DNA from: an uncultured Gemmatimonadales bacterium
GTDB taxonomy: Bacteria; Gemmatimonadota; Gemmatimonadetes; Gemmatimonadales; GWC2-71-9
Length of the DNA: 64,000 nucleotides
NCBI GenBank assembly: GCA_963844035.1
Contig: CAWJMT010000037.1
Coordinates: 258,326 to 322,325 of the forward strand
Direction: 5' to 3'
Part shown: one piece after another, positions 27,232 to 61,957 of the stretch
Layout: every line of letters starts with the position of its first letter
Numbering within the stretch: position 1 is the stretch's first letter
Notes under the pieces: generated by a model
The model's input: only the letters and a program-made list of their open reading frames with translations
Told to the model about the DNA's origin: nothing
Database searches by the model: none
Position numbers and translations under genes: made by a program

Positions 27232-28647
27232 AATCGGTGAGTGGGACGCGGATCGAGCACGACTCCCTGGGCGAATTGCCCGTGCCCGCGGAGGCGCTGT
27301 ACGGCATCCAGACGGAACGGGCGCGTCACAACTTCCCCATTTCCGGGCTGTCGCCGCTCGCCCCGTTTGTCGATGCCGTGATCTGGATCAAGAAGGCCGC
27401 GGCCATTACGCACCGCCACACCAAGCGGCTCGAGGCCACGCTGGCCGACGCCATCGTCCGCGCCGCCGATGAGATTCTGGCCGGGGCGTACCGCGATCAG
27501 TTCGTCGTCGATCCCTATCAGGCAGGCGCGGGCACGTCGCACAACATGAACTGCAACGAAGTGCTCGCCAATCGCGCCAACGAGCTGCTGGGCGGAAAGC
27601 GCGGGGCGTATCAGCCGATCCATCCCAACGATCACGTCAACATGGCGCAGTCCACCAACGACGTGATCCCCACCGCGATCCGCCTGGCCGCGCTCGCGCA
27701 GCTGCCGGGGCTGCTCGCAGGCGCTCGACCGGCTCAGCCGCGCGTTGCTCGCGAAGGGCACGGCTTTCGATGCCATCCTCAAGTCGGGGCGCACGCATCT
27801 GCAGGACGCGACCCCCATCCGGCTGGGCCAGGAGTTCACCGCGTATGGGCACACTGTCACCCGCAGCCGGGATCGCATCGCCCAGGCGGCCGACGCGCTT
27901 CGCGATCTCGGGATCGGCGGCAGCGCGGTCGGGACTGGCTTGAACGTCGAGGCACGCTATCCCGCGCTGATGATCGAGCAGTTGCGAGCGATCACCGGGC
28001 TCGAGCTGCGCGAGGGCACGGACCGCGTACAGCTGATGCAGTCCATGGGGGACGCCGTGGCGTTCGCGGGGGCGCTGCGCGGCTACGCGGTGGACCTGGG
28101 GAAGATCGCGAATGACATTCGTCTCCTCGCCTCGGGCCCGCGCACCGGTTTGGGCGAAATCGTACTGCCTCCGGTGCAGCCCGGCTCGAGCATCATGCCC
28201 GGCAAAGTGAACCCGTCGATCGCCGAGATGGTGAACATGGTGTGCTACCAGACCCTCGGGAACGATCTGGTGGTGGCGACCGCCGCCGAGGCGGGACAGC
28301 TCGAGCTGAACGTGATGATGCCGGTGATCGCCCACAACCTGCTCTTCGCGGAGAAGATTCTCACCACCGCGAGCACCGTGTTCGCCGAGCGCTGCGTCGA
28401 TGGGATAGCGGCGGATCCGAAGCAGGCCGCGTACTGGCTGGAGCGCAGTCCGGCGATCGTGACGGCGCTCGCGCCCAAGCTGGGCTACGAGCAGGCCGCG
28501 CAGCTCGCGAAGGAAGCGGTGGAGAGGAATCTGACCGTGCGCGAGCTGGTGCGGGAAAAGGGGTTGCTCACGGAGCAAGAGCTGAAAGAGGTGCTGGATC
28601 TGCGCGCGATGACCGAGCTGGGGGTTCCCGGCAAGCGGTCCAAGTAG
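27228..28647 (+). CDS. Aspartate ammonia-lyase or class II fumarase (frame break near 27720)
   Basis: YGIQTERA, HPNDHVNMAQSTND, GRTHLQDA and GSSIMPGKVNP signature. Confidence 0.88.
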
Positions 28648-28712
28648 CGCACCCGCCCCTCTCGGGAAGAGGCCGTCCCTGTGCGAGAATCCGCCCCCGG
28701 GCGGGGCTGCCA

Positions 28713-28741
28713 TTGAATCCCGACACCCGGCGTCGCATATT
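28713..28741 (+). promoter_or_regulatory. Putative sigma70 promoter TTGAAT-17-CATATT, 6 nt before rrf2 ATG (leaderless-type)
   Basis: ttgaat cccgacacccggcgtcg catatt ccaccc ATG. Confidence 0.55.
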
Positions 28742-28747
28742 CCACCC

Positions 28748-29200
28748 ATGCGGATTACGACTTGGGGTGAGTACGGGCTGATCGTCTCCCTCAACCTGGC
28801 ACGCCAGGCGGGCACCGGACCGATTGCGGCCCGCGAGCTCGCCGAGGCCGAAAAACTCCCCCACGACTACGTTGAGCAGATCCTCCTTCGCCTGCGGCGC
28901 GCCGGACTGGTCGAGTCGGTGCGTGGCGCGAAGGGCGGGTACCACTTGGCGCGCCCCCCGCACGCCATCAGCGTCAAGGATGTGATGGACGCGTCGGAGC
29001 ATGCCACCTTCGAAGTCAACTGCGATCGCCACCCGGTCAATCAGGATCGATGTAGCGCGGATGCGTCGTGCAGTATCCGGCCGGTGTGGCGGATGCTCGA
29101 GCAGCGGATCAACGAGCTGCTGTCGGGCTTCTCACTCGCCGACCTCCTGCATGACGAGCCCGAGGTCTACCAGATCGCCGGGGTCATGGCCGGGAACTAA
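28748..29200 (+). CDS. Rrf2 family regulator with three Cys (IscR/CymR-like)
   Basis: YVEQIL, VESVRGAKGGY and C-x9-C-x5-C. Confidence 0.9.
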   Translation: MRITTWGEYGLIVSLNLARQAGTGPIAARELAEAEKLPHDYVEQILLRLRRAGLVESVRGAKGGYHLARPPHAISVKDVMDASEHATFEVNCDRHPVNQDRCSADASCSIRPVWRMLEQRINELLSGFSLADLLHDEPEVYQIAGVMAGN

Positions 29201-29274
29201 GTCCCGCTGGCCGCGTTGTCTGTTGGACCCGAACCCGACTCCACCGGTCGGGTTCAACCCGTTTGGAGGCTGAT

Positions 29275-30121
29275 GTGGACTACGCGCATCCTGAAGTGCT
29301 CGTCTCGACCGAGTGGGTGGCCGCCCATGCCGAGCGATACGAACGTCCGCTTGATCGAAGTGGACGTGGACACGACCGCGTACGATTCCGGTCATATCGC
29401 CGGCGCCGCGGGATGGAACTGGCAATCCCAGCTGAACGACGCGGTGCGGCGCGACATTCCCGACGCGGCCGCCTTCGCCCGCCTGATGGGCCAGGCCGGC
29501 GTGACGCCCGCGACCACCGTGGTGCTGTACGGCGACAACAACAACTGGTTCGCCGCGTTCGCCTTCTGGCTGCTGCAGCTGTATGGTCACACCAACGCAA
29601 AACTGATGAACGGCGGGCGCGCGAAGTGGTCGGCCGAGGGCCGCCCGCTCGTCACGACGACGCCGACCGCAGCCGCGATCACGTATCCGGTTCCGAAGCA
29701 GGTCAACGCGCGGATCCGTGCCATGCGGTCCGATGTCGAGCGCGCGATCGGCGCGAAACAGATCGGACTGGTCGATGTGCGCTCACCCGCGGAGTACAAG
29801 GGCGACATCATCGCGCCTCCCGGAATGACGGAGACCGCGCAGCGGCCCGGACACATTCCCGGTGCCCGCAGCGTTCCCTGGGGGCAAGCGGTCGCGCCCG
29901 ATGGCACGTTCAAGCCGCGCGATCAACTGGAGCAGCTGTACGAGTCGGTGCTGGCGAAGGACGAAGTGATCGCCTACTGCCGCATCGGGGAGCGCTCCAG
30001 CCACACGTGGTTCGCGCTGACGTATCTGTTGGGTCGCAAGCAAGTCCGGAACTACGACGGCTCGTGGACGGAGTGGGGCAACCTCGTCGGAGCACCGATC
30101 GCGAAGGGGTCGGAGCCGTGA
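29275..30121 (+). CDS. Tandem-domain thiosulfate sulfurtransferase (rhodanese), frame break near N-terminus
   Basis: YAHPEVLVSTEW, GHIAGA, YCRIGERSS active loop and NYDGSWTEWGN. Confidence 0.9.
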
Positions 30122-31075
30122 ACGAAACGGCGCCGGTCAGGCGGTCAGGCGGTCAGGCGGTCGGCGGAGCGTTCCTCGAGCCAGCGCTGTGGGGCTTGGT
30201 GGGGAACACGCCGTTGATTCCGTGTCCGCCCGACCGCCGGACCGCCCGCACCGCCGCTGTTTCTCAAGGCCGAGTGGTTCAACCCCGGTGGGAGCGTCAA
30301 AGACCGTGCGGCACTCTTCATCTTGCGCGATGGTCTCGCGCGCGGCGAGTTGCCGGACAAGCGTCTGTTGGATGCGACCAGCGGCAACACCGGGATTGCG
30401 TACGCGATGCTCGGGGCGGCCGCGGGGATCGGCATCACGCTCTGCGTCCCGGCGAATGCCAGTCCGGAGCGGAAGGCGTTGCTGACGGTGTTCGGCGCGA
30501 CGGTGATCTACACGGATCCGCTCGAAGGGACGGACGGCGCGATCCGACGCGCGCGCGAAATCGTGGAGGGCGAGCCGGACCGCTACTGGTACGCCGATCA
30601 ATACAACCACCCGGCCAATCCGCGGGCGCACGCCCTGACCACCGCGGAGGAGATCTGGCGCCAGACCGGGGGTAAGGTCACACGCTTCGTGGCGGGCCTC
30701 GGAACGACGGGCACGCTGATGGGCACCGGCCGGCGGCTGCGCGAGCTGAACCCTGCCGTGGAGCTGGTGGCGGTGCAACCCGATGGACCGTTCCACGGAC
30801 TCGAAGGCATGAAGCATCTCGCCACCGCGCTGGTCCCCGGCATCTACGACGCGTCGGTCCCCGACCGGACGGAATTCGTGGCGACCGAAGACGCCGATGC
30901 CATGGTGCGCCGCCTTGCCCGCGAGGCGGGACTGTTCGTCGGCTGGTCCGCCGGAGCGGCGCTGGTCGCGGCCGAACGGAGCGAGACGCCGACCGGCGTC
31001 ACCGTCGTGATCGCGCCGGACGGGGGAGTGCGCTACTTGAGCGAGCACGGCCGGCTGGCGGGTGTGTTTCCATGA
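30118..31075 (+). CDS. PLP-dependent cysteine synthase (CysM-like), frame break near 30245
   Basis: VGNTPL, KAEWFNPGGSVKDR, ATSGNTG and GLGTTGT. Confidence 0.9.
30133..30256. repeat. Inverted pair of octamer tandem arrays inside the cysteine synthase 5' region
   Basis: GCGGTCAG-type x4 at 30133-30164 and CCGCCCGA-type x3 at 30226-30249. Confidence 0.8.
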
Positions 31076-31525
31076 CGCTGATCGTCGAGGATCAGCACAT
31101 CGCCGCGATCCGGAAGCACGGGGAAGCAGACTACCCGCACGAGGCGTGCGGTCTGATGGGAGGCACACCTGGAGGGCGACCGGACCGTCGTCCGGCAGCT
31201 CGTGGCGCTCCCGAATGAGCGGTCGGACTCGGCGCGCAACCGGTATCTCATCGATCCGGACGCGTTTCGCCGCGCCCAGAAAACTCTCGATGGAGAGGGA
31301 CTCGAAATTGTCGGCGTCTATCACTCGCATCCCGACCACCCGGCCGAGCCTTCGACCTTCGACCGCGAGCACGCATGGCCGCGGTTGAGCTATATCATCG
31401 TGGCAGTCGCGGCGGGACGCTCGGGCGATCTGAGAAGTTGGCGCTTGTCGGACGACCGGGCGGCGTTCACCGAAGAACCCATTACTCTGGAACCACGGAA
31501 GGTCGCATGGCAGTCACCGTCCTGA
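31072..31525 (+). CDS. JAB/MPN+ (M67) metallopeptidase, Mec-like (frame break near 31165)
   Basis: YPHEACG and JAMM motif YHSHPDHPAEPSTFD. Confidence 0.9.
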
Positions 31526-32954
31526 TCCCCACGCCACTCCGCCCGTTCGTCGGCGGGAAGGACCTCCTCGTGTTCGAGGCGGGCAGCGTCGGCGATGTGC
31601 TGCGCCAGCTGACGAGCCAGCACGCCGAGCTTCGCAAGCACCTGTTTGCGGATGACGGACGGCTGCGCGCCTTCGTGAACGTGTACGTGAACGATCGGGA
31701 CATCCGCCACCTGGCGCAGCAGGAGACGCGCGTCGCGGCGGGCGACACCGTGTCCATCATCCCGAGCATCGCGGGCGGGACGTCGGCCCCGGTGGGGGCC
31801 CGGCCGGCCAAGTCGCTCCCGAAGCTTTCCCACGAGGAGAGTGCTGCGCTATTCCCGCCACCTGATCCTCCCGGATGTGGGGATCGAAGGGCAGCGGAGG
31901 CTGAAGGCGGCGCGCGTGCTCCTGATCGGAGCCGGGGGGCTCGGATCCCCGGCCGCCCTCTACCTCGCAGCTGCCGGGGTCGGGACGATCGGGATCGTGG
32001 ATTTCGACGTCGTCGACACGACCAATCTGCAGCGCCAGATCCTGCACGGGACCAGCGGCGTGGGAACGTCCAAGCTCGACTCGGCACGCGAGCGGATCCA
32101 GGACCTGAACCCCAACGTCCAGGTGGAAACGATCGAGAGCCGCCTCACGTCCGAGAACGCGCTGGACATCTTTCGTGAATACGACATCGTGGCGGACGGG
32201 ACCGACAACTTTCCCACCCGCTACCTCGTCAACGATGCCTGCGTGCTGCTGGGCAAGCCCAACGTGTACGGGTCGATCTTCCGGTTCGAGGGACAGGCCT
32301 CGGTGTTCTACGCCAAGGAAGGTCCGTGCTACCGCTGCCTCTACGCGGAGCCGCCACCGGCGGGCCTGGTGCCGTCGTGCGCCGAAGGCGGTGTGCTCGG
32401 CGTGCTGCCGGGGATCATCGGCTCGATTCAGGCGCTCGAGACGATCAAGCTGATCATCGGACGGGGCGATACGCTGATCGGGCGGCTGCGTGCTGTTCGA
32501 TGCGCTGCGTCTCAAGTTCCGTGAGCTGAAGCTCGAGCGGGATCCGAACTGCCCGGTGTGCGGGCGGAATCCCACGATCAAGTCGCTGATCGACTATGAA
32601 GCGTTCTGCGGCGTGGTCGAAGAGCCGGCGTACGAAGGCGCGGAAGTCCTCGCGCTCGATCTGAAGGCGGAGATGGATGCCGGCAAGGAGATTGTGCTGC
32701 TGGATGTGCGCGAGCCGCATGAACAGGAGATCACGGAAATCGAGGGCTCGCAGTTGATTCCGTTGGGCGAGTTGCCCGACCGCCTGGGGGAGATTGTCGA
32801 TCACGCCGAGATCGTCACCTATTGCCATCACGGCGGTCGCTCGCTCAAGGCGTTGGAAATCCTGCGGGCTGCGGGATACGCCAAGGTGCGGAGCCTGCGG
32901 GGTGGAATCGACGCGTGGGCGGTGAACGTCGATCCGGAAATGCCGAGATACTGA
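31507..32954 (+). CDS. moeB: MoaD/ThiS-like ubiquitin-fold domain fused to MoeB/E1 adenylyltransferase and C-terminal rhodanese (MoeZ-like), two frame breaks
   Basis: IPTPLR...FVNVYVN...IIPSIAGG followed without a stop by a linker and LSHEE(V)LRYSRHL. Then GAGGLGSP, NLQRQ, PCYRC, CPVCG, LLDVRE and YCHHGGRS. Confidence 0.85.
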
Positions 32955-32959
32955 GCCAA

Positions 32960-33060
32960 TCAGCCATCAGCAGTCAGCGATCAGCAGTCACATGATGAGA
33001 ACGGGATCTCGGTCACGCGACGAGATCCCGTTTCTTGCTGATAGCTGATGGCTGATAGCT
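32960..33060. terminator. Bidirectional terminator-like hairpin flanked by inverted heptamer repeats
   Basis: (TCAGCnn)x4, stem aacgggatctcg/cgagatcccgtt followed by tctt, then (GCTGATr)x3. Lies between convergent moeB and tRNA. Confidence 0.75.
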
Positions 33061-33065
33061 TACAG

Positions 33066-33149
33066 TGCCGAAGGGGGGACTCGAACCCCCACGGGCTTGC
33101 GCCCACTGGCTCCTGAAGCCAGCGCGTCTACCAGTTCCACCACTTCGGC
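33066..33149 (-). tRNA. tRNA-Leu (CAG)
   Basis: GCCGAAG acceptor, D-loop GGAACTGGTAGAC, anticodon arm CTGGC-TTCAGGA-GCCAG, long variable arm and GGTTCGAGTCC. CCA is not encoded. Confidence 0.97.
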
Positions 33150-33203
33150 GAGAGCGGGAACGGCGAATATTCGCCGCGGTATAACCCCAAGTCAACCTTT
33201 GGC

Positions 33204-33232
33204 TTGACCACTCACTATGCGGTTCCTATCTT
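33204..33232 (+). promoter_or_regulatory. Putative sigma70 promoter TTGACC-17-TATCTT for smpB, divergent from the tRNA promoter
   Basis: Exact 17-nt spacer. The opposite strand has TTGACT at about 33190-33195 facing tRNA-Leu. Confidence 0.55.
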
Positions 33233-33245
33233 GCCCTTTGACTAG

Positions 33246-33701
33246 GTGGACAAGCTCTCCATCGCCCGGAATCCGCGGGCGCGACACGACTACCATCTCC
33301 TGGATACGTGGGAGGCTGGGCTCGTGCTCACGGGAACAGAAGTGAAATCCCTGCGCGACGGCAAAGCGAGCCTGGTTGAGGCGTACGCGCACGTGCGCAA
33401 CGGGGAGGTATGGCTCGAGGGAATGAGCATCGCCCCCTACTTGGCCGGCAGCTACAACAACCCTCCCCCCGCCCGTTCCCGCAAGTTGTTGCTGCACAAA
33501 GGCGAGATCCGCAAGTTGATCGGCGGCACGACACAGAAAGGACTCACGCTGGTCCCGTTGGAGCTGTACTTCAAGGACGGCATTGCCAAGGTCGCGATCG
33601 CACTCGCCCGCGCCAAGCGCACCCACGACAAGCGCGAGGACATGAAGCGCCGGGACGCCGAGCGGGAGATGGGCCGCGTGTTCCGGGGGAAGCGGACATG
33701 A
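33246..33701 (+). CDS. smpB: SsrA-binding protein
   Basis: NPRARHDY, EAGLVLTGTEVKSLR, RKLLLHKGEI and HDKRE. Confidence 0.96.
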   Translation: MDKLSIARNPRARHDYHLLDTWEAGLVLTGTEVKSLRDGKASLVEAYAHVRNGEVWLEGMSIAPYLAGSYNNPPPARSRKLLLHKGEIRKLIGGTTQKGLTLVPLELYFKDGIAKVAIALARAKRTHDKREDMKRRDAEREMGRVFRGKRT

Positions 33702-61273: not shown

Positions 61274-61957
61274 ATGGTTCTCCGTCTCGCTGAGCACGCC
61301 CAACGGGACCGCCCGCGGGAGCGTTTCTGGTCCCTCGGGGCCGCCGCGTTGACGGCGCAAGAGCTCCTGGCCATAGTCTTGGGAACGGGCTGCGCGGGAC
61401 GGGATGCGTTGATGGTCGCCGGAGCACTGCTGGGCCGGGCCGAGGGGTCGCTCCGGCGGCTCGCCGCACGGCCGCCGGCGGAGTTGGCTGGTGTGCCGGG
61501 CGTCGGACGCGGCAAGGCCGCGCGCGTCGTGGCGGCCCTCGAGCTGGGGCGTCGGGCGGGGGCGGAGGAGACTCCGGTCCCGGAGCGCATCCGTGGCCCC
61601 GCGGACGTGCACCGCTACTACGCGGTGCGGCTACGCGACCTCCCGGTCGAGGAGTTTCACGTGCTCGCGCTTGGCAGCCAGAGTCAGGTTCAGGGCGACC
61701 TCCTGATCACCCGTGGCATCCTGAACAGCTCGCTGGTGCACCCGCGGGAGGTGTTCCGCGCGGCCATCGCGGAAGCGGCGGCGGGGATCATCGTCGTTCA
61801 TAACCATCCGAGCGGCGACCCGACGCCCTCGGCCGACGACCGCGCGGTGACGCGACAGCTGGTGGAGGCGGGGCGCCTCCTGGATGTCCCGGTGCACGAC
61901 CACGTGATTGTCGGAGGCGATCGCTACGTGAGTTTTGCCGAGGCGGGATTGCTGTGA
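61274..61957 (+). CDS. radC: RadC-like JAB-domain protein
   Basis: RPRER, ELLAIVLGTG, VHPREVF, HNHPSGDPTPSADD and DHVIVG. Confidence 0.93.
   Translation: MVLRLAEHAQRDRPRERFWSLGAAALTAQELLAIVLGTGCAGRDALMVAGALLGRAEGSLRRLAARPPAELAGVPGVGRGKAARVVAALELGRRAGAEETPVPERIRGPADVHRYYAVRLRDLPVEEFHVLALGSQSQVQGDLLITRGILNSSLVHPREVFRAAIAEAAAGIIVVHNHPSGDPTPSADDRAVTRQLVEAGRLLDVPVHDHVIVGGDRYVSFAEAGLL

Follow-up and report, generated by a model that had tools for sequence, protein, structure and literature searches.

A ubiquitin-like carrier fused to its predicted activating enzyme beside a JAMM protease in Gemmatimonadota: a probable variant of the CysO route to cysteine

The DNA described here is a window of 64,000 nucleotides from contig CAWJMT010000037.1 of an uncultured Gemmatimonadales bacterium (assembly GCA_963844035.1, 84% complete). 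Domain searches of the window place five genes in series on its plus strand, encoding an Rrf2-family regulator, a tandem-domain rhodanese, a CysM-type cysteine synthase, a JAMM (JAB-type) protease and a fusion protein, in which a ubiquitin-like sulfur carrier is followed by a linker, a MoeB/ThiF-type activating enzyme (E1) and a C-terminal rhodanese domain. We propose, with a probability of roughly 0.72, that carrier, E1 and rhodanese domain are made as one protein, that the JAMM protease cuts this protein after the Gly-Gly (GG) motif of the carrier, and that a CysO-type cycle then makes cysteine. Judged from sequence, the operon is real and widespread. It would be a variant of the CysO pathway and, in principle, nothing new.

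The carrier-E1 fusion and its adjacent protease

A single reading frame joins carrier and E1, with an invariant GG and a variable linker between them. G90-G91 is retained in all 38 full fusions compared, as are C277/C280, C294 and C351/C354 of the E1, which include both of its CxxC motifs, and C442 of the rhodanese domain. The linkers of 45 fused relatives range from 13 to 45 amino acids, with a median of 19. A profile built from 56 carriers matches chains 4n6e_B (E 3.7e-26) and 3dwg_C (E 4.6e-24), both of which we take to be CysO proteins, and matches MoaD-related and SAMP entries only at 3e-13 or weaker; structure 3dwg also contains a CysM. By these matches the carrier is CysO-like. It bears the Gly-Gly of CysO-pathway carriers, though internally until a cut is made; being fused to E1, it is not encoded as the free protein ending in Gly-Gly that also typifies that pathway. 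In an AlphaFold model of the fusion from a genome of the same genus (G032), the domains fold (mean predicted local distance difference test score, pLDDT, 81.6) and residues 88-104 fall below a pLDDT of 50. The GG and linker thus have low confidence in this model, which gives no confident placement of the GG in the E1 site and speaks neither for nor against docking in cis.

The source sequence of the operon is interrupted by five frame breaks in four genes. The rhodanese, CysM and JAMM genes have one each and the fusion has two. Extra bases lie near 29333 (rhodanese), 31169 (JAMM), and 31840 and 32490 (fusion), and the CysM break lies near 30240. After the GG the frame is open over a stretch of 20 amino acids ending in LSHEE, which the extra base near 31840 parts from VLRYSRH. 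Compared with the intact proteins of G032, the upstream fumarase-family gene is also frame-broken, and Rrf2, SmpB and an amidase are unbroken. All operon genes are intact in G032, where the fusion has 484 amino acids. Contigs of near relatives lack one base at 29333, 31169, 31839/31841 and 32490, and lack 13 bases at 30238; these are short-read contigs from four runs in two studies and represent relatives, not the source strain. Because the bases are missing from the relatives' contigs, and because genes elsewhere in the assembly, unrelated to the operon, are split in like manner, the five breaks are almost certainly assembly errors. Five breaks across four genes could also be expected of a decaying pseudogene cluster in the source strain, or of a fusion that is itself a sequencing artefact. 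Such an origin is hardly credible, however, given the same comparisons, given that the breaks amount to net one-base gains with no in-frame stops, and given that G032 and thousands of database proteins have the fusion unbroken.

An initial annotation of this DNA had claimed that no stop follows the GG and that the frame runs on to LSHEE, the usual lead-in to RYSRH. Fused relatives, contigs bridging the junction and G032 bear this out. The stretch 31835-31845, which it singled out for confirmation of the fusion, does contain a break, but the breaks in the rhodanese, CysM, JAMM and fumarase-family genes went unmentioned. A hidden stop after the GG was also considered and is ruled out, since fused relatives and the bridging contigs stay in frame (the contigs were not read base by base).

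Similar fusions had been expected in other genomes, and they are common. The comparison covered 80 loci, the best among 503 related ones, drawn from 5 of the 64 parts of a genome collection and coming mostly from Acidobacteriota and Gemmatimonadota. Carrier and E1 are fused in 46 of these 80 loci (45 recognized by script; the other, L044, stays open across the junction and has its break within the E1), although the query that ranked the loci contained the linker and may favour fusions, and kin are not independent. The remaining 34 loci are split, and every one of them has a tail of 1-32 residues after the GG; carriers ending at the GG number 0 of 80. When the first 125 residues of the fusion served as a protein query, 6412 proteins of 266-847 amino acids matched at E <= 1e-15, and 119 of 120 among the matches listed have both ThiS and ThiF domains. 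A survey of the order covered 70 genomes, each at least 90% complete. Ten fusions were recognized there by matching open frames among the ThiS matches listed, and nine were confirmed in fetched sequence (the tenth is in G064).

A quick E1 tree was made from 98 of 102 loci, omitting four with short or broken E1 matches. The fused/split label switches nine times on this tree, at least three of these switches being forced by strong branches, and split loci are mostly nested within fused ones, subject to the placement of the root. The simplest reading is that the tails after the GG would be relics of linkers, and that fusion and fission are tolerated once a JAMM protease is present.

The tails of split relatives also differ from linkers in composition. 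They contain 25 cysteines in 186 residues, distributed over 11 of the 34 tails, as against no cysteine in 956 residues of fused linkers. Tails of this kind follow the GG directly in L007, L080, L072, L005, L018, L065, L070 and L071. In L007, base pairing is predicted between the run of cysteine codons and a sequence some 70 nucleotides downstream, before the E1 start. These tails could serve cysteine-sensing control of E1 translation, could mimic the carrier-cysteine product or could be derived from repeats.

The JAMM protease of the window has an intact H-S-H-x7-S-x2-D motif and upstream Glu. The strict pattern is found in 61 of 71 homologues, and the remaining 10 retain both His residues and the Asp. 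A survey of fusion and JAB co-occurrence, as proposed in the initial annotation, places a JAMM gene adjacent in 79 of the 80 loci, and the genome of the exception has two JAMM genes elsewhere. CysM is present in 75 of these loci by a strict hidden Markov model and in 77 by tblastn. A strong JAMM match occurs in 11 of the 70 genomes of the order, namely all 10 with a fusion (in G044 on an adjoining contig) and G048. The 13 separate carrier-E1 pairs all end in GG-stop, and their genomes show no JAMM match at E <= 1e-8; a ThrC-like neighbour stands beside 12 of the 13. Because every masked carrier examined sits in a JAMM-bearing locus or genome, release of the carrier by JAMM is likely to be a maturation step, as had been suggested.

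Other JAB-like sequences were encountered in these searches. The operon JAMM is the sole one of the source genome apart from a RadC, and a second JAB-like match in the window (61337-61957, at 61.6 kb) was rejected as a RadC family gene. Weak JAB matches beside divergent ThiF matches at G037:C3:558115-559228 and G054:C2:529849-531415 possibly represent E1-JAB defence genes. In G048, a CysM-JAB-carrier group with a free GG (C3:246159-247700, L113) lies apart from the E1 (C3:185000, L114), which is still located between the fumarase-family gene and smpB.

Proposed cysteine synthesis and the other carriers of the genome

In the proposed cycle, the JAMM protease would cut behind G91 shortly after the protein is made, with no special control. 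The E1 would then adenylate the freed C-terminus, and a persulfide on the rhodanese domain would convert it to a thiocarboxylate, a chemistry that is established (PMC3227635). The tandem rhodanese likely feeds this persulfide. The CysM-type enzyme would join O-phosphoserine to the thiocarboxylate and, by analogy with Mec+, the same JAMM would release cysteine and regenerate the carrier. The E1 and C-terminal rhodanese domains have the catalytic cysteines, from which thiocarboxylation of the carrier is predicted. Once released, the E1 would be the general activator of the cell, charging ThiS and a MetO-like carrier as well, and MoaD where there is one.

Searches for the enzymes that make the two candidate substrates bear on the choice of O-phosphoserine. 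No CysE over the cut-off was found in the source genome or in any of five fused relatives, and SerA exceeds its cut-off in four of five genomes, including the source. Because CysE was not found and SerA is present, O-phosphoserine is the likelier substrate of the synthase.

It is quite improbable that the carrier is released but the synthase is of the ordinary type B and takes free sulfide or thiosulfate, with the carrier serving another sulfur acceptor or only transferring sulfur between partners. Such an arrangement would accord with the nearest solved relatives of the synthase, which are E. coli CysM, its top structure match, and Salmonella CysM. It would also accord with a Lys that is conserved in at least 90% of 64 sequences and that, as counted on an alignment, lies opposite Arg210 of E. 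coli CysM, a position presumably linked to the binding or use of phosphate or thiosulfate. A literature search on the residue at this position found no paper. In addition, a thiosulfate sulfurtransferase-type gene adjoins the synthase gene, and a PAPS reductase and a NirA-like gene elsewhere (G000:C4:328585-332325, L112) could supply sulfide. Against this stand the clustering of CysM with the JAB, carrier and E1 genes, seen in 75 to 77 of the 80 loci, which span several phyla, the failure to find CysE, and the CysO-like character of the carrier.

Several observations weigh against the carrier-dependent cycle itself. The synthase matches E. coli CysM better (E 3.7e-97) than it does the CysO-dependent CysM (E 1.4e-79), and CysK exceeds its cut-off in one of the five fused relatives (G014). 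A CBS-like gene (G000:C9:67797, L083), at 484 bits against a cut-off of 510, might provide an alternative route to cysteine. With the source genome 84% complete, a second E1 or a CysE may escape detection. Co-occurrence with JAMM is confounded and can be explained by product release alone, because JAMM goes along with CysM and because G048, whose carrier has a free GG, retains it. In P. aeruginosa, the substrates of a type-B synthase are O-acetylserine and either sulfide or thiosulfate; O-phosphoserine is not used (PMC12800425). Finally, the fused E1 scores 522 bits against a MoeZ model with a cut-off of 647 and keeps both CxxC motifs, which makes it MoeBR-type in the naming of PMC3227635. MoeZR as defined in that paper mostly lacks the second motif, and mycobacterial MoeBR does not charge CysO.

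The fused E1 is the one ThiF match of the source genome, which has three ThiS-family carriers. These are the fused carrier, a ThiS ending GGG-stop before ThiG, and a free carrier with GG-stop that follows a ThrC-like gene (G000:C5:38000-39430; L081:5002-6429). MoaE was not found in the source genome. The ThrC-like protein and its free CysO-like carrier likely constitute, by analogy, a MetM/MetO route to homocysteine. In 12 of the 13 relatives that lack JAMM, such a pair stands beside the E1, and there product release would have no need of JAMM. Likewise, 6 out of 10 fused relatives (completeness 98-100%) have the fused E1 as their sole ThiF match, alongside three to four carriers; G032, for example, has ThiS, a MoaD before a MoaE-like gene (recognized from its translation) and a ThrC-linked carrier. 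Because it is the only ThiF match in a genome that encodes free carriers too, the fused E1 likely works in trans for several pathways. The relay is therefore not 'self-contained', as it was first described. Synthesis of carrier and E1 in a 1:1 ratio, another part of that description, does follow from the fusion, but one-to-one function does not.

The released carrier might alternatively act mainly as a protein modifier of the SAMP, Urm1 or TtuB kind, which E1 attaches to lysines and JAMM removes. The carrier does exceed the NCBIfam SAMP1 cut-off (62.7 versus 60 bits), the JAB protein has a weak desampylase match, and carriers of this sort are known to have two kinds of role (in part from PMC2948915). 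Even so, modification as the principal function is very improbable, as the context is metabolic, the operon has no E2/E3 or defence genes, the carrier is far closer to CysO than to SAMPs, and PADLOC matches are weak and confined to the shared adenylation core (best E 1.9e-21). The E1-E2-JAB combination of bacterial ubiquitination and anti-phage systems is incomplete here, with no E2 domain among the Pfam matches of the operon. Protein modification may nevertheless be a side activity of the carrier.

Regulation and relation to known systems

The fusion could in principle act as a regulated gate. The uncut carrier would block or destabilize the sole E1, and the JAMM cut, perhaps controlled through Rrf2 and iron-sulfur (Fe-S) status, would turn on the cysteine, homocysteine, thiamine and molybdopterin pathways. 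No E1 other than the fused one was found here or in 6 of the 10 fused relatives, the linker is probably long enough for the carrier to reach an E1 site, and in close relatives the first gene of the operon encodes an Rrf2 protein with three Cys. A gate is nonetheless unlikely. The JAB gene overlaps the fusion gene, so the two are likely co-expressed, and Rrf2 lies upstream in only 3 of the 80 loci. Moreover, the repeated changes between fused and split forms on the E1 tree argue that the fusion is dispensable. It is similarly doubtful that these bacteria have a zymogen E1, that is, an activator locked by its own ubiquitin-like propeptide, in which one JAMM cut licenses all four sulfur-transfer pathways.

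The fusion is best seen instead as co-translation that is tolerated since JAMM is always present, and not as a switch. The proteolytic switch under Rrf2 control that the initial annotation envisaged is disfavoured by the same gene overlap, by the scarcity of Rrf2 and by the interchange of fused and split forms three to nine times. Control of the operon by Rrf2 in those genomes that have it is plausible. The tandem rhodanese is likewise rare, being nearby in 4 of the 80 loci, and both additions were seen in Gemmatimonadota.

The closest described counterpart is the mycobacterial CysO/CysM/Mec+/MoeZR system (PMC3227635). It resembles the operon in having a CysO-like carrier, a cysteine synthase, a JAMM protease and an E1 with a C-terminal rhodanese domain, and its MoeZR serves both MoaD and CysO, just as the E1 here likely serves several carriers. 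In mycobacteria, however, the carrier is free and the E1 is encoded by a separate gene, whereas here the two are fused, both CxxC motifs are present in the E1, and in sequence the synthase resembles E. coli CysM more closely. By analogy, the system would work like the mycobacterial one with a maturation cut of the MoaD-MoaE kind. It is not a strict member of the CysO pathway, since it lacks a free form of this carrier and has an E1 of the MoeBR type.

Components of this arrangement have been described separately. Operon type 4c of Iyer, Burroughs and Aravind (2006; PMC1779556), found in an acidobacterium among others, combines a ThiS/MoaD-like protein, an E1-rhodanese, a JAB as well as a cysteine synthase, and the same paper proposed that JAB frees the C-terminus of fused ThiS/MoaD domains. 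The accessible part of its text does not name a carrier-E1 fusion, Rrf2 or a tandem rhodanese for this type. Makarova and Koonin (2010; PMC2948915) noted a ubiquitin-like domain at the N-terminus of an E1, in a fusion common to Thaumarchaeota and bacteria. Their account, as far as accessible, is one sentence, concerns a protein with another C-terminal domain and makes no link to JAB processing or cysteine. In Deinococcus radiodurans, DRJAMM cuts a natural linear MoaD-MoaE fusion after the carrier glycine and so frees the C-terminus (PMC8832034). The partner in that case is the sulfur acceptor MoaE and the pathway is molybdopterin synthesis, whereas the partner here is the activating E1. In the Streptomyces MetO/MetM/Mec/MoeZ system (as summarized in bioRxiv 10.1101/2024.10.14.618325), a carrier matured by Mec and charged by MoeZ is used by a pyridoxal phosphate enzyme. 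That system makes homocysteine, and its carrier is not fused to E1; the source genome has a comparable pair on contig C5, where a ThrC-like gene precedes a free carrier.

The processing step had been called uncharacterized, and a literature search, conducted mostly without subscription papers and without supplements, found no paper testing cleavage of a ubiquitin-like-E1 fusion. The accessible parts of PMC1949818 and PMC11354881 contain nothing on a carrier-E1 fusion. The step is less novel than this suggests, since the operon type and JAB release were proposed in 2006, ubiquitin-like-E1 fusions were noted in 2010, and MoaD-MoaE cleavage is known. If the proposal is correct, thousands of Gemmatimonadota and Acidobacteriota proteins that bear the plain annotation MoeB would be precursors, and these abundant bacteria would form cysteine through a carrier route that has so far been studied mainly in actinobacteria. 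The cysteine gap in genomes without CysE would be filled, and bacteria would offer a natural parallel to ubiquitin made as a cleavable fusion. Known principles would be extended and not overturned; the finding would be weightier if the uncut carrier inhibits the only E1 of the cell.

Operon layout and neighbouring features

The gene order and domains given in the initial annotation, including the three-Cys Rrf2, agree with the domain searches, and so does its estimate of about 91 amino acids for the carrier fragment. End-to-start overlaps join the last four genes; the JAMM gene overlaps cysM by 4 nucleotides and the fusion gene by 19. The three cysteines of the Rrf2 protein are kept in all seven upstream Rrf2 homologues. 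Its scores against the IscR model (100.6 bits, cut-off 207.55) and the CymR model (94.9 bits, cut-off 195) place it in the Rrf2 superfamily only.

Table 1. Positions of the operon features within the window
Feature	Position	Strand	Basis and remarks
Rrf2-family regulator, three Cys (C-x9-C-x5-C)	28748..29200	+	PF02082 E 2.7e-34; TIGR00738 over cut-off; Fe-S binding and operon control putative
Tandem-domain rhodanese, thiosulfate sulfurtransferase type, active loop CRIGER	29275..30121	+	PF00581 in two stretches; 76% to the unbroken gene of G032
CysM-type (type B) cysteine synthase, motif HGLEG[LM]KH	30118..31075	+	PF00291; TIGR01138 best but under cut-off; nearest structure E. coli CysM
JAMM/MPN+ metalloprotease (Prok-JAB), E...HSHP-x5-PS-x2-D	31072..31525	+	PF14464; solved relatives 2kcq, 5lda
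CysO-like ubiquitin-fold carrier, 91 amino acids, ends Ile-Ala-Gly-Gly without stop	31507 (ATG)..31779	+	PF02597, NF041918; GG at 31774-31779
Linker, 22 codons between GG and RYSRH, with an additional base near 31840	31780..31846	+	Linkers of relatives; low model pLDDT
MoeB/ThiF E1 adenylation domain, both CxxC motifs	31841..32600	+	PF00899 E 1.3e-78; invariant Cys positions
C-terminal rhodanese domain of fusion, active loop CHHGGR	32601..32954 (stop)	+	PF00581; invariant C442

A scan of 28500-33300 for promoters and terminators gave no signal above chance within the operon. The operon is followed by a tRNA-Leu(CAG) gene on the minus strand (33065-33149) and by smpB on the plus strand (33246-33701), and close relatives likewise have smpB downstream.

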